Source: Saprospirales bacterium
Lineage (GTDB): Bacteria; Bacteroidota; Bacteroidia; Chitinophagales; Saprospiraceae
Direction of reading: 5' to 3'
DNA: 64,000 nt
Assembly: GCA_002698985.1 (NCBI GenBank)
Contig: PAAY01000027.1
Location: 11,231-75,230, forward strand
Shown: in pieces, positions 13,974 through 48,388 of the stretch
Layout: the number at the start of each line of letters is the position of its first letter
How positions within the stretch are numbered: the first letter of the stretch is position 1
Program-made: the position numbers and the translations under genes
The notes under the pieces: generated by a model
Databases searched by the model: none
The model's input: only the letters and a program-made list of their open reading frames with translations
What the model was told of the DNA's origin: nothing

Positions 13974-16900
13974 ATGCACCTGGCATCGCACACATATTAC
14001 AGCCTGCGCTACGGCACCCTGTCGCCCCGGCAGCTGGTGGAGGCGGCGCAGGCCCGCGGGGTGGAGACCCTGGCCCTCACCGATGTGAACAACACCTCGG
14101 CGGCGGGGGAATTCGTGCGGCTGTGCCGGGAGGCGGGCATCCGGCCCCTGCTGGGCATCGACTTCTTCCGCGACGGGCAGCGGCTCTACACCGGCCTGGC
14201 CCGCAACGCCGACGGCTTCTGCGCCCTCAACCGCTTCCTGTCGGTGCACTCCATCCAGGGGCGGCCCCTGCCCACCCTGGCCAGCGAGTGGGACTGGAAC
14301 CCCGCCGAGGTGGCCTTCATCTACCCCCGCCTGGTCAAGCCCATCGAGCGCTTTGCCGGGTACGAGTACCTGGGCGTGCGGCCCGAGCACGTACACCGGC
14401 TGTTCAGCTCGCCGGTGCGCCACCACCCCGACCGGCTCATCGCCTTCAGCCCCGTGACCTTCCTCGACGAGGAGGGCTGGGAACTGCACCGCCTGCTGCG
14501 GGCCATCGACCTGAACACCCTGCTGTCGAAACTCCAACCCACCGATCACGCCCCAAAGACCGAACTCTTCCACCCGCCGGCCGTGCTGCGGGATTTTTAC
14601 AAGCTCTACCCCCGCCTGCTCGAAAACGCCGGGCGCCTCGCCGAATCCTGCGAGATCGAGCTGGAAACGGGCCTGCACATCAACCGCCAAACCTTCACCG
14701 GCAGCCGAGAGGGCGACTACAAGCTGCTCGAAAAACTCACCCTCGAGGGATTCAAAAGGCGGTTTCCGGAGTGTTCAGTGGCCCCCGATACCGAAAGCTT
14801 TCGGTATCGGGGTCAGTGTTCAGTGGGCAGTAAGCAGTTGGCAGTTGGGCGTTCCGACGCGACCAGAAAGCCCCCTCATCCCTCCCCCGATGCCGATAGC
14901 TATCGGCACGGGGCATCCCCCTCCTCGAAGGGCCCCAGGGGGCTGACCAACCCTACACCCTCAACCCTCAACTCTAAACTCTCAACCCTACACCCTACAC
15001 CCTACACCCGCCTCCACCGCGAGCTCGAGGTGATCCGCGAGATGGACTTCTGCGCCTACTTCCTCATCACCTGGGACATCGTGCGCTATGCGCAGTCGGC
15101 GGGCTACCACCACGTGGGGCGGGGCAGCGGAGCGAACTCGCTGGTGGCCTACTGCCTGGGCATCACCGACGTGGACCCGCTGGAGCTGGACCTCTACTTC
15201 GAGCGCTTCATCAACCGCAACCGGCCCTCGCCGCCGGATTTCGACATCGACTTTTCCTGGGACGAGCGCGACGACGTGACCGACTACATCTTCAAGCGCT
15301 ACGGCTGGGAGTACACGGCCCTGCTGGCCACCTACAGCACCTTCCAGTTCAACGCCGCCGTGCGCGAGGTGGGCAAGGTTTTCGGTTTGCCGAAGGAAGA
15401 AATAGACAACTTTGCCGACGAACTGCTCCGCAAGATGGGCACCGAGGATGTGCGCTACTGGAAGCGCGAGCAGGGTGGCCGGCTGTTGCGCAGCGAAGAG
15501 GAACCCAACCGCCGCCACCTGCCCTCCGACATCCACGCGCAGGTGCTTCGCTTCGCAAAACGGCTGCACGGCTTCCCCAACCACCTGTCCATCCACGCCG
15601 GCGGGGTGCTCATCTCCGAGCGGCCCATCTTCTACCACACGGCCCTGCAGATGATGCCCAAGGGCTTCCCCATCACGCACTTCGACATGCACCACGCCGA
15701 AGACCTCGGCTTCCACAAGTTCGATGTGCTCAGCCAGCGCGGCCTGGGCCACATCAAAGACGCCGTGGACCTCATCAAACTCAACCAGGGCAAGGCCGTC
15801 GACATCCACGACGTGGCCGCCATCAAAAAGGACGAGCGGGTGCGGGCTCAACTGCGCAGCGGCCACTGCATCGGCTGCTTTTACATCGAAAGCCCGGCCA
15901 TGCGGGGCCTGCTCAAAAAGCTGCGCTGCGACACCTACCACCACCTGGTGGCGGCCAGCAGCATCATCCGCCCCGGCGTGGCGCAGTCTGGCATGATGAA
16001 GGAGTACATCCGCCGCTTCCACGCACCCAATTCTTTCGACTACCTGCACCCGGTGTTCAAAGAGCACCTGGGCGAGACCTTCGGCGTCATGGTCTATCAG
16101 GAGGACGTGATGAAGATCGTACACCACTTCGCCGGCCTGGGCCTCGACGAGAGCGACATGCTGCGGCGCCTCATGAGCGGCAAAAAGCGCCAGGGCGACC
16201 AGTTCGAGCTGCTCAAGCGCAAGTACTTCGACAACTGCCGCCGCCTGGGCCACCCCGATGCGCTGGCCAAAGAGGTGTGGCGCCAGATCGAGAGCTTTGC
16301 CGGCTACTCCTTCTGCAAGGCCCACTCGGCCAGCTACGCCGTGGAGAGCTTCCAGAGCCTGTACCTGAAGACCTACTACCCGCTGGAGTTCATGGTGGCC
16401 GTCATCAACAACTTCGGCGGTTTCTACCGCACGGAGTACTACTTCCACGAGGCCCGCATGGCCGGCGCCACCATCCACGCTCCCTGCGTCAACAACAGCC
16501 AGTACCTCACTTCGCTGCGCAACAAAGACATCTACGTGGGCTTCATCCACCTCAACGGCCTGGAGCGACAGACGGCGGCCAAAATCGTGCACCAGCGCAC
16601 GGTGGGTGGCCCCTTCCGCAGCCTGGCCGATTTCATCAGCCGGGTGGACATCGGCGCCAGCCAGCTGGAGCTGCTCATCCGCATCGGGGCCTTCCGCTTC
16701 ACGGGCCTCAGCAAGGGCGCCCTGCTCTGGGAGAAAAACGCCGTGTTCAATCCCCGCGAAAAGTTCGAGGCTTCGGGCCTGCTCTTCCCCGATCCGCACG
16801 AAAACTACGAGCTGCCTCCCCTGGAGGAGGGCCCCTACGACCAGGCTTTCGACGAAATAGAACTGCTGGGCTTCCCGCTCTGCTCGCCCTTCGAGCTGCT

Positions 16901-41132: not shown

Positions 41133-41294
41133 CCCTGTTGTTGCCATTGAAAACCCTGTGGCTCGTCACGAGCTTTGCTCGTTGACGCTTTTAAGTTGCG
41201 GCCTCTGGCCGCTTCATGGTCTTTTGATAGGCGACACAGGATATTAGAAAGCGATGAATCACAACACATTAACCATTAATCAATCACAGCATCC

Positions 41295-43329: not shown

Positions 43330-43851
43330 TCATTCCTCCGGCTGGAATTTCAAGGCAGCAGAATTGATGCAATAGCGCAGTCCCGTGGGCTTGGGGCCAT
43401 CTTCAAACACATGCCCCAGGTGGCCGCCGCAGCGGGCACAGCGCACCTCTGTCCGCACCATTCCGAAGCTGGTATCTTTAACTTCCTCGATGCAGTAATC
43501 GTTGAGCGGCTGGTAGTAGCTTGGCCAGCCCGTGCCGCTTTCAAACTTCGTTTCCGACGAAAACAGCGGAAAGCCGCAGGCCCGGCAGGTGTAGATTCCG
43601 TCCTCGTGGTTGTTCCAGTACTCGCCGGTAAAGGCCCTTTCGGTGCCTCCCTCCCGCAGTACGTAATACTCAAAAGGCGCCAGCACCTCTTTCCATTCTT
43701 CCTTGCTTTTGATCACTTTTTGAATGGTGTCGCCTTCCGGCGTAATGATTGGACTGGCATCCACGGCCATGCTGTGTGCCTGCTGCGCCTGGTTGCAGCC
43801 AGGACCCAGCAGCAGAATTAGAAGTGGCAGGTAGTTTATGATGCGGTGCAT
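43330..43851 (-). CDS. msrB: Peptide-methionine (R)-S-oxide reductase MsrB (exported/lipoprotein form)
   Basis: Two CxxC zinc motifs ([20 protein letters not shown]) and the catalytic RYCINS. N-terminal signal with LLGPGC. Confidence 0.9.
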
Positions 43852-44062
43852 TTTGTTATGATTATGAGGATTATGGAGGATTATATGGATTATGGAGGAT
43901 TATATGGATTATGGAGGTTGTTGTCGGTTGTCGGTTCCTTAATTTCTGAGCCCCTCATGCCGATAGCTATCGGCATCGGTATCGGGGCTCAGTTCCTCAG
44001 TTCCTCGGTTCCTCAAATCTTCAAATCTTCAAATCTTCAGTTCTTCAGTTCTTCAATTCCTC
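43852..44062 (+). repeat. Mosaic repeat locus, left member of an inverted pair
   Basis: (GGATTATNNN)-type units, (GTTGTCG)x2, a unique stretch GTTCCTTAATTTCTGAGCCCCTC, the perfect 20-bp palindrome ATGCCGATAGCTATCGGCAT at 43957-43976, then octamer arrays (AGTTCCTC, AAATCTTC, AGTTCTTC). Confidence 0.9.
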
Positions 44063-44621
44063 ATTCCTCCAACACCAATCTAATGTTCCAGTTCACGCTT
44101 TGGCCGGTTCTTTCTTCGAAGGTCTTCCAATCGCCGTCGGTGCTGAGGAAGAGCCAGTCGCCGTCGTTTTTGCGGGGGCCGGCATCGCAGCCGATGGACT
44201 GTTGTTCGGCCGGGTGCTGCACCTGAACGGATACCCAAAGGTCTTCATCACCGATGGTGAGGTCAGGGCCGATGGTATGGGTATTCCATGCAGGGGTGTT
44301 CAGGTCATTGGTGACAGTGGCCTGGTACAGGCTGGAGCCGGGTTGGGTGGCCGTGCCCTGGCCGTAAATCCGCACCTTGCAGTCTGCCGGGTTGTTGCCG
44401 GCAAAAAAGCTGACGGCCTGAATTCGTTTGCCCTTGTGGGCAGCCAGATCAGCAGCGGGGAATCTCACAGCCAGTTCGTGAATGCCGGGTGCCAGCAAGG
44501 GTCCCGAAAAATTATCGCCGTCGTAATGCAGCACATTGTTTCCGGTGGGGGCGGGGCTTTCGTCTTTTTGGCAGGAAAGGGTCAGGGTCAGCATTGCAAT
44601 TGCGAAGAAAAAATACTTCAT
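44061..44621 (-). CDS. Lipoprotein, function unknown
   Basis: MKYFFFAIAMLTLTLSC lipobox. 186 aa, beta-rich. Confidence 0.6.
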   Translation of the reverse strand: MKYFFFAIAMLTLTLSCQKDESPAPTGNNVLHYDGDNFSGPLLAPGIHELAVRFPAADLAAHKGKRIQAVSFFAGNNPADCKVRIYGQGTATQPGSSLYQATVTNDLNTPAWNTHTIGPDLTIGDEDLWVSVQVQHPAEQQSIGCDAGPRKNDGDWLFLSTDGDWKTFEERTGQSVNWNIRLVLEE

Positions 44622-44769
44622 GGTCAGACAGGTTTTGGTGTAAAGCTATCTCCCACCAACATTTGCCGTAGGCGAAGCCGGGATAATTAACAGCCTTTTA
44701 GCAGCTGCAGGCAGATTTGACCTAAAAGGAATCCTGAGCCGGTTATCTTTGGCGCCAAATAAAATCAAC

Positions 44770-47184
44770 ATGAAGTTCATTTTTACCTTTTTTACCGCCA
44801 CCTTATTTGTTCTCACTTCGGCCTTCGGCCAACTGACCAGCCTGAGCAAACCCGTCAACAACAGTCCGCTGACCATAACCCAGTTCATGCAGGGCGAGCG
44901 CTTCGTCGGCTTCCTGCCGGAAGACATCCGCTGGTCTTTGGACAGCAAGACCATCTACTTCTCCTGGAACCCCGATGGCGACACATTGCGCAGCGATTAC
45001 AAAATCAGCCTTGACGACAAGGGCAGGGCAGGGGAGCCCCTGAAAGTGGAGCTGGAAGAGCTGAGAACATTGCCCGAAACGGGCGACTACAACAAGGCGC
45101 GCAATGCCCTGCTGTACGATAAAAATGGCGACATCTTTCTGGCTACCCTTTCGGCCTCCGGCCAATGGGAAAGCAGGCAACTGACCAATACCCTGGACCG
45201 GGAAGGAAATCCCCGTTTCAGTGGTGACGAGCAGCAGGTCATTTTCCAGAACGGCGACAACCTGTTCAGTTGGGACCTCAACAGCCACGAACTGAGCCAG
45301 TTAACGGACTTCCGTTCCGGAAAAGAGCGGGGAGAGCGCCCATCTCCGCCACATGAGGCCTGGCTGGAAACTGAAAATATGGAACTGTTCGAGGTGTTGG
45401 CGGAACGCAAACAAAAAGGCGAACTCAGAAGAGAACGCCGCAAGGCCCTCGCGCCTGACAGACCTCTCACCTGGCGATACGGTGATGCCAACATCGGCAA
45501 CCTGCAGGTAACGCCTGATCTTCATTTTGTCACCTTCCGGCTTTACCACGATAGCGACGGAAAAGGCACCGAAGTGCCCAACTATGTGACCGAATCCGGT
45601 CAGGTGGAAATGCTCCGCTCCCGTGAGAAGGTGGGCAGTCCGCAAGGCTGGACGGAACTGGGCATTTACGACCGCCAGCGCGATACGGTGTACCTGGTGG
45701 AGGTGGAGCAGATCGAGGGCATTTACGACAAGCCGGAATTCTTGCGGGAATACCACAAGGATACCACGGAGTACAATCCCAAATACGACAAGCCCCGCAA
45801 GGTGATCTTCAACGGCCCGGTGTTTTCGGAAGACGGGAAAGCCGTGGTGGTCATTCGCAGCCTGGACAACAAAGACCGCTGGATCATGCTTCTAAACCTG
45901 GAAAACGGAAAACTGGAGTTGATCGACCGGCAACGGGACGAAGCCTGGGTGGGCGGCCCCGGCATCAGCGGCTGGAATTTTTCCACCGGAACCCTGGGCT
46001 GGCTGCCGGATAACAAAACCCTTTATTTTCAATCGGAAGAGAGCGGCTTTTCGCACCTGTACCTCTACAATGTTGAGACGAAAAAGAAAAAGCAGTTGAC
46101 CTCCGGCAATTTTGAAATTCTGGATGTGCAGCTTTCCAACGACGGCAAGCTGTTTTACCTGCGCTCCAACCGGGAGAGCCCTTTTGAGCAGCACCTTTAC
46201 AGCCTGCCCGTTGCCGGAGGCGAAATGAAAAAAATTACTTCCCTTCCGGGAAATCACGAGACCTACCTCTCACCCGATGAGCGCTGGATCGCGGTTCGAT
46301 ACTCCTACAGCAACAAGCCCTGGGAGCTGTACCTGATGCCCAATGAAGCCGGAGCGAAAGCTGTTCAACTGACCCGCTCCACCACCAAAGATTTTGAAGC
46401 CTACCCCTGGCGGGAACCTGAGCTGGTGTGGTTCGAGGCCGCCGACGGGGTGAAGGTGCCGGCCCGGCTCTACCGCCCGGAAGCCCCTAAGCGCAACGGT
46501 GCCGCCGTGGTCTTTGTGCATGGCGCCGGCTATCTTCAGAACGTGCACCGCTGGTGGAGCAGTTATTACCGGGAGTACATGTTCCACAACTTCCTGGCGG
46601 ACAACGGCTACACGGTGCTGGACATCGACTACCGGGCCAGCAGCGGCTACGGCCGTGACTGGCGCACCGCCATCTACCGGTACATGGGCGGCAAAGACCT
46701 CTCCGACCAGGTGGATGGCGCCCGCTACCTGGTGGCAGAGCACGGCATCGATGCCGACAGGATTGGAATTTACGGGGGCAGCTACGGCGGCTTCATCACC
46801 CTCATGGCGCAGTTCACGGCACCGGGTGTTTTCAAAAGCGGCGCTGCGCTTCGTTCCGTAACGGACTGGGCGCATTACAACCACGGCTACACCTCCAACA
46901 TCCTCAACACCCCGGTGGAAGACAGCATTGCCTACCGGCGCTCCTCTCCCATTTATTTTGCCGAAGGGCTGAAAGGACACCTGCTCATCCTGCACGGCAT
47001 GGTGGATGTGAACGTGCAGTTTCAGGATGTGGTACGCCTTTCGCAAAGGCTCATCGAACTCGGCAAAGACAACTGGGAAATGGCCGTCTTCCCCATGGAA
47101 GACCACGGCTTCATAGAGCCCAGCAGCTGGGCCGATGAGTACAAACGGATTTACCGGCTGTTTGATAAAACGCTGAGGAAGTGA
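44770..47184 (+). CDS. S9-family serine peptidase (prolyl oligopeptidase / dipeptidyl peptidase type)
   Basis: ORF trimmed to MKFIFTFFTATLFVLTSAFGQ. N-terminal beta-propeller region. C-terminal alpha/beta hydrolase with GGSYGG nucleophile elbow and terminal D/H region (HGMVDVNV, EDHGF). Confidence 0.88.
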   Translation: MKFIFTFFTATLFVLTSAFGQLTSLSKPVNNSPLTITQFMQGERFVGFLPEDIRWSLDSKTIYFSWNPDGDTLRSDYKISLDDKGRAGEPLKVELEELRTLPETGDYNKARNALLYDKNGDIFLATLSASGQWESRQLTNTLDREGNPRFSGDEQQVIFQNGDNLFSWDLNSHELSQLTDFRSGKERGERPSPPHEAWLETENMELFEVLAERKQKGELRRERRKALAPDRPLTWRYGDANIGNLQVTPDLHFVTFRLYHDSDGKGTEVPNYVTESGQVEMLRSREKVGSPQGWTELGIYDRQRDTVYLVEVEQIEGIYDKPEFLREYHKDTTEYNPKYDKPRKVIFNGPVFSEDGKAVVVIRSLDNKDRWIMLLNLENGKLELIDRQRDEAWVGGPGISGWNFSTGTLGWLPDNKTLYFQSEESGFSHLYLYNVETKKKKQLTSGNFEILDVQLSNDGKLFYLRSNRESPFEQHLYSLPVAGGEMKKITSLPGNHETYLSPDERWIAVRYSYSNKPWELYLMPNEAGAKAVQLTRSTTKDFEAYPWREPELVWFEAADGVKVPARLYRPEAPKRNGAAVVFVHGAGYLQNVHRWWSSYYREYMFHNFLADNGYTVLDIDYRASSGYGRDWRTAIYRYMGGKDLSDQVDGARYLVAEHGIDADRIGIYGGSYGGFITLMAQFTAPGVFKSGAALRSVTDWAHYNHGYTSNILNTPVEDSIAYRRSSPIYFAEGLKGHLLILHGMVDVNVQFQDVVRLSQRLIELGKDNWEMAVFPMEDHGFIEPSSWADEYKRIYRLFDKTLRK

Positions 47185-47362
47185 GCCCCGAAGCCGATGC
47201 CGATAGCTATCGGCATGAGGGACTCAGGAATTAAGGAACCGACAACCGACAACAACCTCCATAACCCATATAATCCATATAATCCATATAATCCATATAA
47301 TCCTCCATAATCCTCCATAATCCTCCATAATCCCCATAATCCATATAACCCCACAACAACAC
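47185..47362 (-). repeat. Mosaic repeat locus, right member of the inverted pair
   Basis: Reverse complement of 43856-43992. Palindrome ATGCCGATAGCTATCGGCAT at 47197-47216, then TTAAGGAACCGACAACCGACAACAACCTCC and CATATAATC / CATAATCCTC arrays. Begins at the S9 peptidase stop codon. Confidence 0.9.
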
Positions 47363-47365
47363 CCC

Positions 47366-48388
47366 ATGCAACTGACCATCCACCCCTACACCCTGAAACT
47401 GAAAGAGACCTTTACCATTGCCCGGGGGGCTTACAGCGAGCGCAAGGTTCTGTTTGTTGGCCTCAGTGCTGCGGGCAAAACAGGCTACGGCGAGGCCGGC
47501 GAACACGAGTATTACGGCGTCAGAATAGATGATTTACTGGCAGGAGCTGAAAAGTTGAAGCCCATCGTTCAGGGCTATGCATTCGACAATCCCGCCAACT
47601 TCCACGAGTACATCAAACCCCATTGCGAAGGCAACACTTTTCTGCTGGCGGCATTGGACGAGGCCGCCCACGACCTGTACGGGAAACTGGGAAACAAACC
47701 CTGTTTCGAGCTTTGGGGCTGGCAGCCCGAAGCAGCTCCGAAAAGCTGTTACACCCTGCCCATCGATGATCCGGATACCATGCTTCGAAAACTGCGGGAG
47801 ACGGACTTCAGCATTTACAAGGTGAAGCTGGGAAGCAGCAAAGACCTGGAAGTGATGCGGATGCTGCGGGACAATACCGATGCCATTTTACGAGTGGATG
47901 CCAATTGCGCCTGGACGGTGAAAGAGGCCATTGATAGGTCCGAAAAATTGGCGGAACTGAAGGTGGAGTTCATCGAACAGCCGCTGGCCCATGACAACTG
48001 GGAAGGGATGAAAGAACTGGCCCGCCACAGTGCCCTGCCGCTCATTGCCGACGAATCCTGCCGGACACCGGATGACTTGGAGCGCTGCGCCGAGGTTTTC
48101 AATGGCATCAACATAAAATTGGTGAAATGCGGCGGCCCGACCGCAGCCCTGAAAATGATCAAACTGGCCCGCTCTCTGGATTTGAAAATCATGGGTGGTT
48201 GCATGGTGGAGAGCAGCGTGGCCATTTCGGCCATGGCGCACCTGGCTCCCGCTCTCGATTACCTGGACATCGACGGACCGCTCTTGCTGGCCAACGATCC
48301 CGCAAGCGGTATCCGGCTGGATGAGCAGGGTGGGGTGCATTTCAATGGAAAGCCCGGCTTCGGTACCGACCTGCTTGTGCAGGGTTAG
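47366..48388 (+). CDS. Dipeptide epimerase (L-Ala-D/L-Glu epimerase type, enolase superfamily)
   Basis: MR/MLE-type motifs: KVKLG, RVDANCAWT, IEQPL, IADES and INIKLVKCGG. Confidence 0.82.
   Translation: MQLTIHPYTLKLKETFTIARGAYSERKVLFVGLSAAGKTGYGEAGEHEYYGVRIDDLLAGAEKLKPIVQGYAFDNPANFHEYIKPHCEGNTFLLAALDEAAHDLYGKLGNKPCFELWGWQPEAAPKSCYTLPIDDPDTMLRKLRETDFSIYKVKLGSSKDLEVMRMLRDNTDAILRVDANCAWTVKEAIDRSEKLAELKVEFIEQPLAHDNWEGMKELARHSALPLIADESCRTPDDLERCAEVFNGINIKLVKCGGPTAALKMIKLARSLDLKIMGGCMVESSVAISAMAHLAPALDYLDIDGPLLLANDPASGIRLDEQGGVHFNGKPGFGTDLLVQG

Follow-up and report, generated by a model that had tools for sequence, protein, structure and literature searches.

Inverted repeat copies around a lipoprotein and S9 peptidase gene pair in a Saprospirales bacterium as neighbouring members of a fast-changing intergenic mosaic family

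This article is concerned with two inverted repeat copies that bracket a divergently transcribed gene pair, one gene encoding a lipoprotein (44061-44621, minus strand) and the other an S9 family peptidase (44770-47184, plus strand), in a 64,000-nucleotide stretch of DNA from a Saprospirales bacterium. This whole stretch, here called the window, corresponds to positions 11231-75230 of contig PAAY01000027.1 (C33:11231-75230) in the assembly GCA_002698985.1 (4.83 Mb, 102 contigs, 52% G+C; G000 hereafter), and all positions without a contig name are counted from its first letter. The copies are neighbouring members of a genome-wide, fast-changing and junk-like repeat family, rather than the termini of a gene cassette that can move or invert. 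Their close likeness to one another probably goes back to a single non-reciprocal copying of sequence from one locus to its neighbour within this mosaic family, which is limited to this species and a sister species (G008).

The inverted repeats, first noticed in an original prediction made from the letters alone, are real: a repeat scan returns two arms at 43897-44000 and 47173-47276 that are 104 nt long and 94% complementary, and a gapped alignment of the left with the right copy, from CTGAGGAA to ATATAATCC, has 100 matches and 6 mismatches in 106 columns. The 20-bp perfect palindrome ATGCCGATAGCTATCGGCAT that had been described for both copies stands exactly at 43957 and 47197, with a third occurrence in the window at 14890 (1 mismatch; shuffle expectation 0 in 100 shuffles), and the 29-nt GGTTGTTGTCGGTTGTCGGTTCCTTAATT is found within the window solely at the left and right copies, mutually inverted. 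When the whole 4.83-Mb assembly is searched with the linker and hairpin stretch of 56-60 nt, the only matches are again these two copies. The genes between them are the divergent pair as claimed, and the right copy does start at the S9 stop codon, in that the TGA occupies 47182-47184 and the stem GAGCCCC begins at 47183, the first two bases of the hairpin being the last two of the stop codon; the right inverted arm reaches 12 nt into the coding end of the S9 gene.

Both repeats occupy their spacers wholly, from stop codon to start codon, the left one between the lipoprotein gene and msrB (43852-44060) and the right one between the S9 gene and a racemase gene (47185-47365), and both spacers lie in co-directional gene pairs, on opposite strands, that flank the divergent pair. 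On the gene-sense strand the modules follow one order in each spacer, namely GAGGAACT-type 8-mer arrays, a hairpin (GAGCCCC...GGGGCTC with the palindrome inside), the single odd unit AATTAAGG, then AACCGACAACCGACAACAACC, and last the CCATAATCC-type 9/10-mer arrays. By coordinate, the left repeat consists of module A, a GGATTAT(AT)GGA tandem array of 9/10-nt units that adjoins the msrB start (43852-43915); module B, GGTTGTTGTCGGTTGTCGGTT (43916-43936); a linker, CCTTAATTT, which is a degenerate 8-mer unit (AATTAAGG in gene sense) seen in these two copies only (43937-43945); the hairpin module CTGAGCCCC...GGGGCTCAG (43946-43992; palindrome 43957-43976; DNA fold of -17.3 kcal/mol, z -6.0); and module D, the 8-nt arrays TTCCTCAG, TTCAAATC and TTCAGTTC, which end at the lipoprotein stop codon (43993-44060). 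The right repeat begins with the hairpin module GAGCCCC...GGGACTC (47183-47225; palindrome 47197-47216; DNA fold of -12.2 kcal/mol, z -3.3), continues with the linker AGGAATTAAGG and the reverse complement of module B, AACCGACAACCGACAACAACC (47226-47257), and closes with the reverse complement of module A (CCATAATCC and CCATATAATCC arrays) followed by CCCACAACAACACCCC up to the racemase start (47258-47365). The left GGATTAT-type 9/10-mer array, of about 64 nt, is indeed shorter than the right one, of about 92 nt, and look-alike open reading frames (ORFs) do exist in both copies, the protein motif LMPIAIGIG that had been ascribed to both being present in the left one only; these ORFs are read-through of the arrays, antisense to the real genes and overlapping them.

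Left and right copies have in common several characters that are unique in the genome (the AATTAAGG unit, an asymmetric arm extended by a further CCGAT unit, and CATGAGGG where other copies have CATCGGGG); the two are copies of one another, and their standing as mutual closest relatives is supported. The module B-to-A junction is family-wide and is present at both G008 spacers, hence homologous arrays pre-existed and could prime conversion. In the reconstruction that I favour, both loci would be ordinary members of a non-coding mosaic family in which arrays of 7-10-nt units carry inset GC-rich palindromic hairpin modules, and both spacers would have held arrays of the same kind already in the common ancestor with G008; in the lineage of the present species about 50-100 nt, made up of the hairpin, whose arms are oddly asymmetric, and of the unique AATTAAGG unit, would then have been copied non-reciprocally between the spacers, which lie 3.2 kb apart. 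The homologous arrays on either side most likely primed this copying, through gene conversion or template switching. The inverted orientation would carry no special meaning, the family being self-complementary and near copies being direct about as often as inverted, and the hairpin slot within each repeat would turn over on the time scale of strain divergence. As for the direction of copying, the strains described below favour right to left, the right palindrome being present in all strains of 97-100% identity and the left one only in the window type; left to right, as an older event with the left site remodelled later, is favoured by the 6% divergence between left and right and by the left spacer of G008, which holds a related hairpin, GCCGATAATAATCGGC.

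Several points weigh against this reconstruction. The copies differ at 6 of 106 positions though strains differ by only about 1% in the flanking genes, and it follows that either the event predates the strain split and the left site later underwent losses or swaps, or a third copy served as donor. Gene conversion would leave the same picture as the transposition of a small hairpin element along with one flanking unit. Moreover, the state of the block is known from assembled contigs, and the population may contain rare inversion or excision variants, and the statistics of near pairs given further below rest on a rough home-made map of ORFs.

How quickly the two slots change can be seen in contigs from close strains, which were gathered by exact-protein look-ups in many metagenome assemblies and whose lipoprotein genes are 96.3-100% identical to that of the window. 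These contigs are short and come from different samples, such that a single contig joins left and right repeats in just two cases, the window type and L111, and the two states of the L107/L113 strain come from one assembly (GCA_054681935.1). The window type (100% in the lipoprotein gene; L096-L099 span the left repeat and L096 also the right) has spacers of 209 nt on the left and 181 nt on the right, identical to those of the window. L109 (99.1%) and L110 (96.3%), both with the right spacer off the contig, have left spacers of 134 and 161 nt, respectively, that hold arrays and no hairpin; L111 (98.7%) has a left spacer of 129 nt with a different hairpin (CCGAAAGCTTTCGG type) and a right spacer of 200 nt with the window palindrome and linker; and L107 with L113 (99.3%) has at least 430 nt on the left, spread over two contig ends, and 190 nt on the right, again with the window palindrome and linker. 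Two further contigs, with the left spacer off the contig, were placed by the S9 end and the racemase gene: L114 (about 97%) has a right spacer of 200 nt with the window palindrome and linker, and L115 (about 96%) one of 142 nt with the other hairpin. The left slot therefore occurs in four states (window palindrome, no hairpin, other hairpin, or the long module of 430 nt or more) and the right slot in two, and the right spacer measures 181, 190 or 200 nt between strains through gain and loss of array units. The structural polymorphism thus sits within each repeat, as hairpins that are present, absent or swapped and as arrays of different length, and not in the gene block.

Gene ends are intact across these strains apart from changes of the last residue (K/N in S9, and one Glu fewer in the lipoprotein). 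The terminal codons of the lipoprotein gene (GGAGGAATGA, 44061-44075) and of the S9 gene (CTGAGGAAGTGA, 47173-47184) resemble the adjoining 8-mer array units, and since this resemblance goes together with a last residue that varies between strains, the arrays may grow from or into the gene ends. The contig ends that carry the long left module (L107:7583-7727 and L113:1-150) have inverted termini, CTGAGTCC[C/A]CTGCAAAAA, and share the subterminal CAAACAAAATTTGGT. The terminal motif, GAGTSCMCTGCAAAAAG, occurs 51 times in G000, as a rule directly after 8-mer arrays and before cores of about 100 nt that belong to several classes; together with the long module it looks like a layer of the family resembling miniature inverted-repeat transposable elements (MITEs).

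In the sister species G008, whose S9 protein is 88% identical in amino acids and whose lipoprotein gene is 86.5% identical in nucleotides, msrB, the lipoprotein gene, the S9 gene and the racemase gene stand in the same order and orientation as in the window, and the spacers, 307 and 355 nt long, are filled by the same repeat family with other hairpins, extra modules and other array lengths. No repeats occur in the divergent promoter region that separates the lipoprotein and S9 genes, and that region is ordinary and conserved. Relatives at 62-78% identity keep the divergent lipoprotein and S9 pair among other neighbours, with short ordinary flanks and without these repeats, from which it follows that the gene pair predates the repeats and that the block is not delimited by them. 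The original prediction had raised insertion or deletion of the segment through the repeats as a possibility to be checked in related strains, and this found no support, as no related strain or species examined lacks the segment or has a solo copy, and among strains of 96-100% identity none of the roughly 12 contigs that span a junction has the block missing or flipped. A search for a target-site duplication at the outer ends of the block found none, because these ends are variable arrays that abut start codons, and no transposase or recombinase was found among the genes in or beside the block. The repeats themselves (181-209 nt of arrays plus hairpin) contain no real ORF.

One metagenome contig, L106, was considered as an 'empty' state of the locus and rejected, its breakpoint being in the divergent promoter region and not at the repeats. 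Its lipoprotein gene is about 86% identical to that of the window, the spacer between lipoprotein gene and msrB is 55 nt long with a plain GC hairpin and no arrays, and no S9 gene adjoins; in the place of S9, at L106:1-1452, a co-directional gene for a 380-aa esterase-like protein with a probable type IX secretion system (T9SS) C-terminal sorting domain precedes the lipoprotein gene.

Now considering the genome as a whole, Tandem Repeats Finder (TRF) reports 3950 arrays in G000, mostly of period 6-12 and of hundreds of unit types, and the unit family of module A has 385 pattern matches. Genome-wide statistics used a gene map from a rough home-made caller, whose 3223 ORFs cover 85% of the genome, and on this map 1278 of 1697 arrays are intergenic. 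Strict CCCCG...CGGGG hairpins number about 100, 84 of them intergenic, and the long ones resemble nested extensions of short ones, which suggests that hairpins may grow by symmetric addition of units. Among such nested hairpins, CCCCGAAAGCTTTCGGGG (34 copies) is found lengthened to CCCCGATACCGAAAGCTTTCGGTATCGGGG, and the window palindrome is itself composed of inverted CCGATN hexamers around AGCT. The palindrome type of both spacers occurs at about 9 loci in the genome, and among 31 genomes searched the GGATTATGGA arrays and the window palindrome were seen only in G000 and G008, apart from three palindrome matches in G015. A search of the literature for this repeat family in Saprospiraceae found no description.

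Sharing of modules depends on proximity and not on orientation. In an all-against-all comparison of intergenic spacers of up to 700 nt, with matches of at least 60 nt at 85% identity or more that include at least 45 non-tandem bases, there were 557 similar pairs. Of these, 21 have their members no more than 10 kb apart, a tenfold excess over the 2.0 expected (at most 6 in 500 permutations); 13 of these near pairs are direct and 8 inverted. The original prediction had read the inverted bracketing, which it saw at more than one place, as suggesting a general behaviour of the family, and this is partly supported: neighbouring loci share modules far beyond chance, a sign of some local behaviour, but inverted bracketing is not favoured. 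The orientation of the cores relative to genes is random (84 versus 102). On the top strand, arrays to the left in a spacer are G-rich and arrays to the right C-rich whatever the arrangement of the genes (411 + 406 fit, 137 + 113 do not), and this symmetric pattern means that the family is compositionally self-complementary and that elements can sit in a spacer either way round. Read 5' to 3', the G-rich strand always points toward the middle of the spacer, and the common units AGGGTTT, AGGGTGT and AGGGAGT resemble telomere-type G-strand repeats. There is weak support for a flip of strand composition at the hairpin (22 G-rich-left/C-rich-right versus 7 reverse), many hairpins being inside one array. 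A rule of gene polarity, by which a stop codon is followed by a purine-rich array, a hairpin, a G-poor array and a start codon, was also considered (817 arrays fit and 250 do not) and dropped, as it is mathematically identical to the left-G-rich/right-C-rich rule for the top strand; the test on stop-codon content is symmetric too, and the random core orientation bears on this rule as well.

The copy event has rivals. One reading sees the slot between the arrays as an actively exchanged position, where palindromic modules of 30 nt to at least 430 nt, bounded by GAG[C/T]CCC and its complement, would enter, leave and pass between nearby spacers as fast as strains diverge, with array units as targets, and where the left and right pair would be local hopping caught in the act; I regard this as possible and offer it tentatively. 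A narrower proposal, somewhat more doubtful still, is that a tiny mobile element, non-autonomous and consisting of the hairpin module GAGCCCC...GGGGCTC and perhaps one 8-mer beside it, inserted independently, or hopped locally, into array units at both spacers, so that the likeness of left and right comes from a shared master copy. Such an element would account for the presence/absence and replacement alleles among 96-99% strains with their constant left boundary (GAGGAACT followed by GAG), and every centre module, the long one included, begins with GAG[C/T]CCC and ends with its complement. Degenerate 7-nt direct repeats flank the module (AGGAACT/AGGAACT in L107 + L113 and AGGAAGT/AGGAATT at the right copy), but these 'duplications' are array units and hence not diagnostic; in terms of the terminal inverted repeats and target-site duplication that define a MITE, for example of the Correia/NEMIS type, the whole 181-209-nt repeat is without terminal inverted repeats, and it is the hairpin that is bounded by GAGCCCC/GGGGCTC, with array units as its flanking 7-mers. 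The genome also encodes a single REP-associated tyrosine transposase (RAYT; G000:C58:22362-23015, equivalent to L112:1360-2013; NF047646, 98 bits), yet it is flanked by a different palindrome: on both sides stands a unit of about 150 nt with GCTCGTCACGAGC and the GTAG-tagged palindrome GTAGCGGCCTCTGGCCGC, of which the genome has 28 copies, one at window position 41195 and none in the two spacers, and no GTAG or CGTC tag was found on the spacer hairpin GAGCCCC...GGGGCTC. The likeness of left and right extends beyond the hairpin, and the variant stands at only two loci of the genome, which is unlike the trace of a dispersing element.

It is very improbable that the palindrome is a selected cis element, be it the operator of a dimeric regulator or a hairpin in RNA, similar to a repetitive extragenic palindrome (REP), that ends or stabilises the lipoprotein and S9 transcripts, and a regulatory role is unlikely. 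The palindrome is perfect over 20 bp and has a stable fold, each copy follows a stop codon on the strand that is transcribed (the right one directly at the S9 stop), and both contain CCGACA-17-TATAAT facing the downstream gene. However, the left palindrome is lost or replaced in 96-99% strains and the right one replaced in a 96% strain with the flanking genes intact. Scans at the hairpins for sigma-70-like promoters and intrinsic terminators gave nothing above chance, CCGACA-17-TATAAT being no more frequent than expected from shuffles and the hairpins showing no terminator-like match because no T-run follows them, and a comparison of the repeats with Rfam gave no credible match. The CCGACA-17-TATAAT type of promoter is not known to be in use in Bacteroidota, which have a different promoter consensus. 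Last, the view of the lipoprotein-S9 block as a cassette that its inverted copies allow to transpose or invert, akin to a composite transposon or flipped via the arms, is largely refuted and scarcely credible, for although 104-nt arms of 94% identity at a distance of 3.2 kb are in principle a possible substrate for homologous recombination, no transposase or recombinase lies in or adjoins the block, order and orientation are unchanged in G008 and in all of the roughly 12 junction-spanning contigs, and distant relatives conserve the gene pair without these repeats.

Cyanobacterial short tandemly repeated repetitive (STRR) heptamers are short intergenic tandem arrays comparable to TAACTGA repeats. 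The present family works like a mosaic of the bacterial interspersed mosaic element (BIME) type combined with heptamer arrays of the TAACTGA/STRR kind (PMC4679880, PMC3733652). Similar to the BIMEs of enterobacteria, which are built on REP palindromes, these are extragenic mosaics of imperfect palindromes and short motifs in variable arrangement, with many copies that vary between strains and lie mostly between co-directional or convergent genes; in contrast to BIMEs, where tandem arrays of 7-10-nt units are absent, such arrays form the bulk here. By the definition in PMC3733652, REPs are imperfect palindromes of 20-40 nt, one end of which bears a conserved tag, GTAG or CGTC, and the spacer hairpin differs from REPs and BIMEs so defined in having neither tag. 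The TAACTGA direct repeats are intergenic heptamer arrays in Beggiatoaceae, cyanobacteria and five Bacteroidetes (MacGregor, 2015; PMC4679880), and are alike in being short, intergenic-only arrays that often reach stop or start codons, with stops in all frames on one strand and the other open, and with indels of whole units between strains. Unlike them, the present family has hundreds of 7-10-nt unit types in place of one heptamer, with unit sequences that differ from those published, and it adds hairpin modules and cores of about 100 nt and flips its strand composition across each spacer. The features expected of intergenic short tandem arrays are all found, that is, 7-10-nt units in tandem, intergenic placement and whole-unit variation between strains. 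REP doublets forming hairpins (REPINs), together with RAYT (Bertels and Rainey, 2011; PMC3116915), are likewise short, palindromic and non-autonomous repeats with one RAYT gene per genome, but the spacer palindrome does not flank RAYT, is found at about 9 loci only and forms no inverted REP doublet. Composite transposons and invertible segments are alike only in topology, with inverted repeats on either side of genes, and differ in that neither a transposase nor an invertase nor a target duplication is present here, and in that the block shows no polymorphism of presence or of orientation among the contigs compared. The features that define REPs and REPINs, composite transposons and invertons are not present at these repeats.

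On the left, msrB (43330-43851, minus strand; SelR domain, Pfam SelR 1.1e-52) has its CAT at 43849-43851, the start abutting the left repeat, and the lipoprotein of 186 aa has the lipobox LTLSC, no Pfam family and 96 homologues in Saprospiraceae/Lewinellaceae, where the homologues of the S9 peptidase also fall. The latter has a DPP IV N-terminal propeller and an S9 catalytic domain (Pfam DPPIV_N 2.3e-24 and Peptidase_S9 5.2e-46). On the right, the start that abuts the repeat belongs to an enolase-superfamily racemase/epimerase (47366-48388, plus strand; Pfam MR_MLE_C 3e-35), whose best NCBIfam match, DgcA/L-Ala-D/L-Glu epimerase, is below the cut-off.

These observations remove the tempting reading of the block as a mobile or invertible cassette and show the mode of evolution of an undescribed Saprospiraceae repeat family, for which module swapping at the level of strains and local copying are new. 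The arrays persist long, being found in the same two spacers of two species that are about 14% apart in lipoprotein-gene nucleotides, and the hairpin modules are gained, lost and replaced among 96-99% strains, with sequence exchanged between nearby loci; the spacers thereby lend themselves to the study of gene conversion over short distances, or of micro-transposition, as it occurs naturally in a marine bacterium that is uncultured. There is also a practical warning, in that assemblies break at these repeats and gene callers yield antisense phantom ORFs there. Metagenome contigs often end or turn chimeric within the GGATTAT arrays, as at L098:1-185 (ERZ907883 k127_1404811) and also in L099-L104, and in L098 the right array runs on into unrelated AT-rich sequence.

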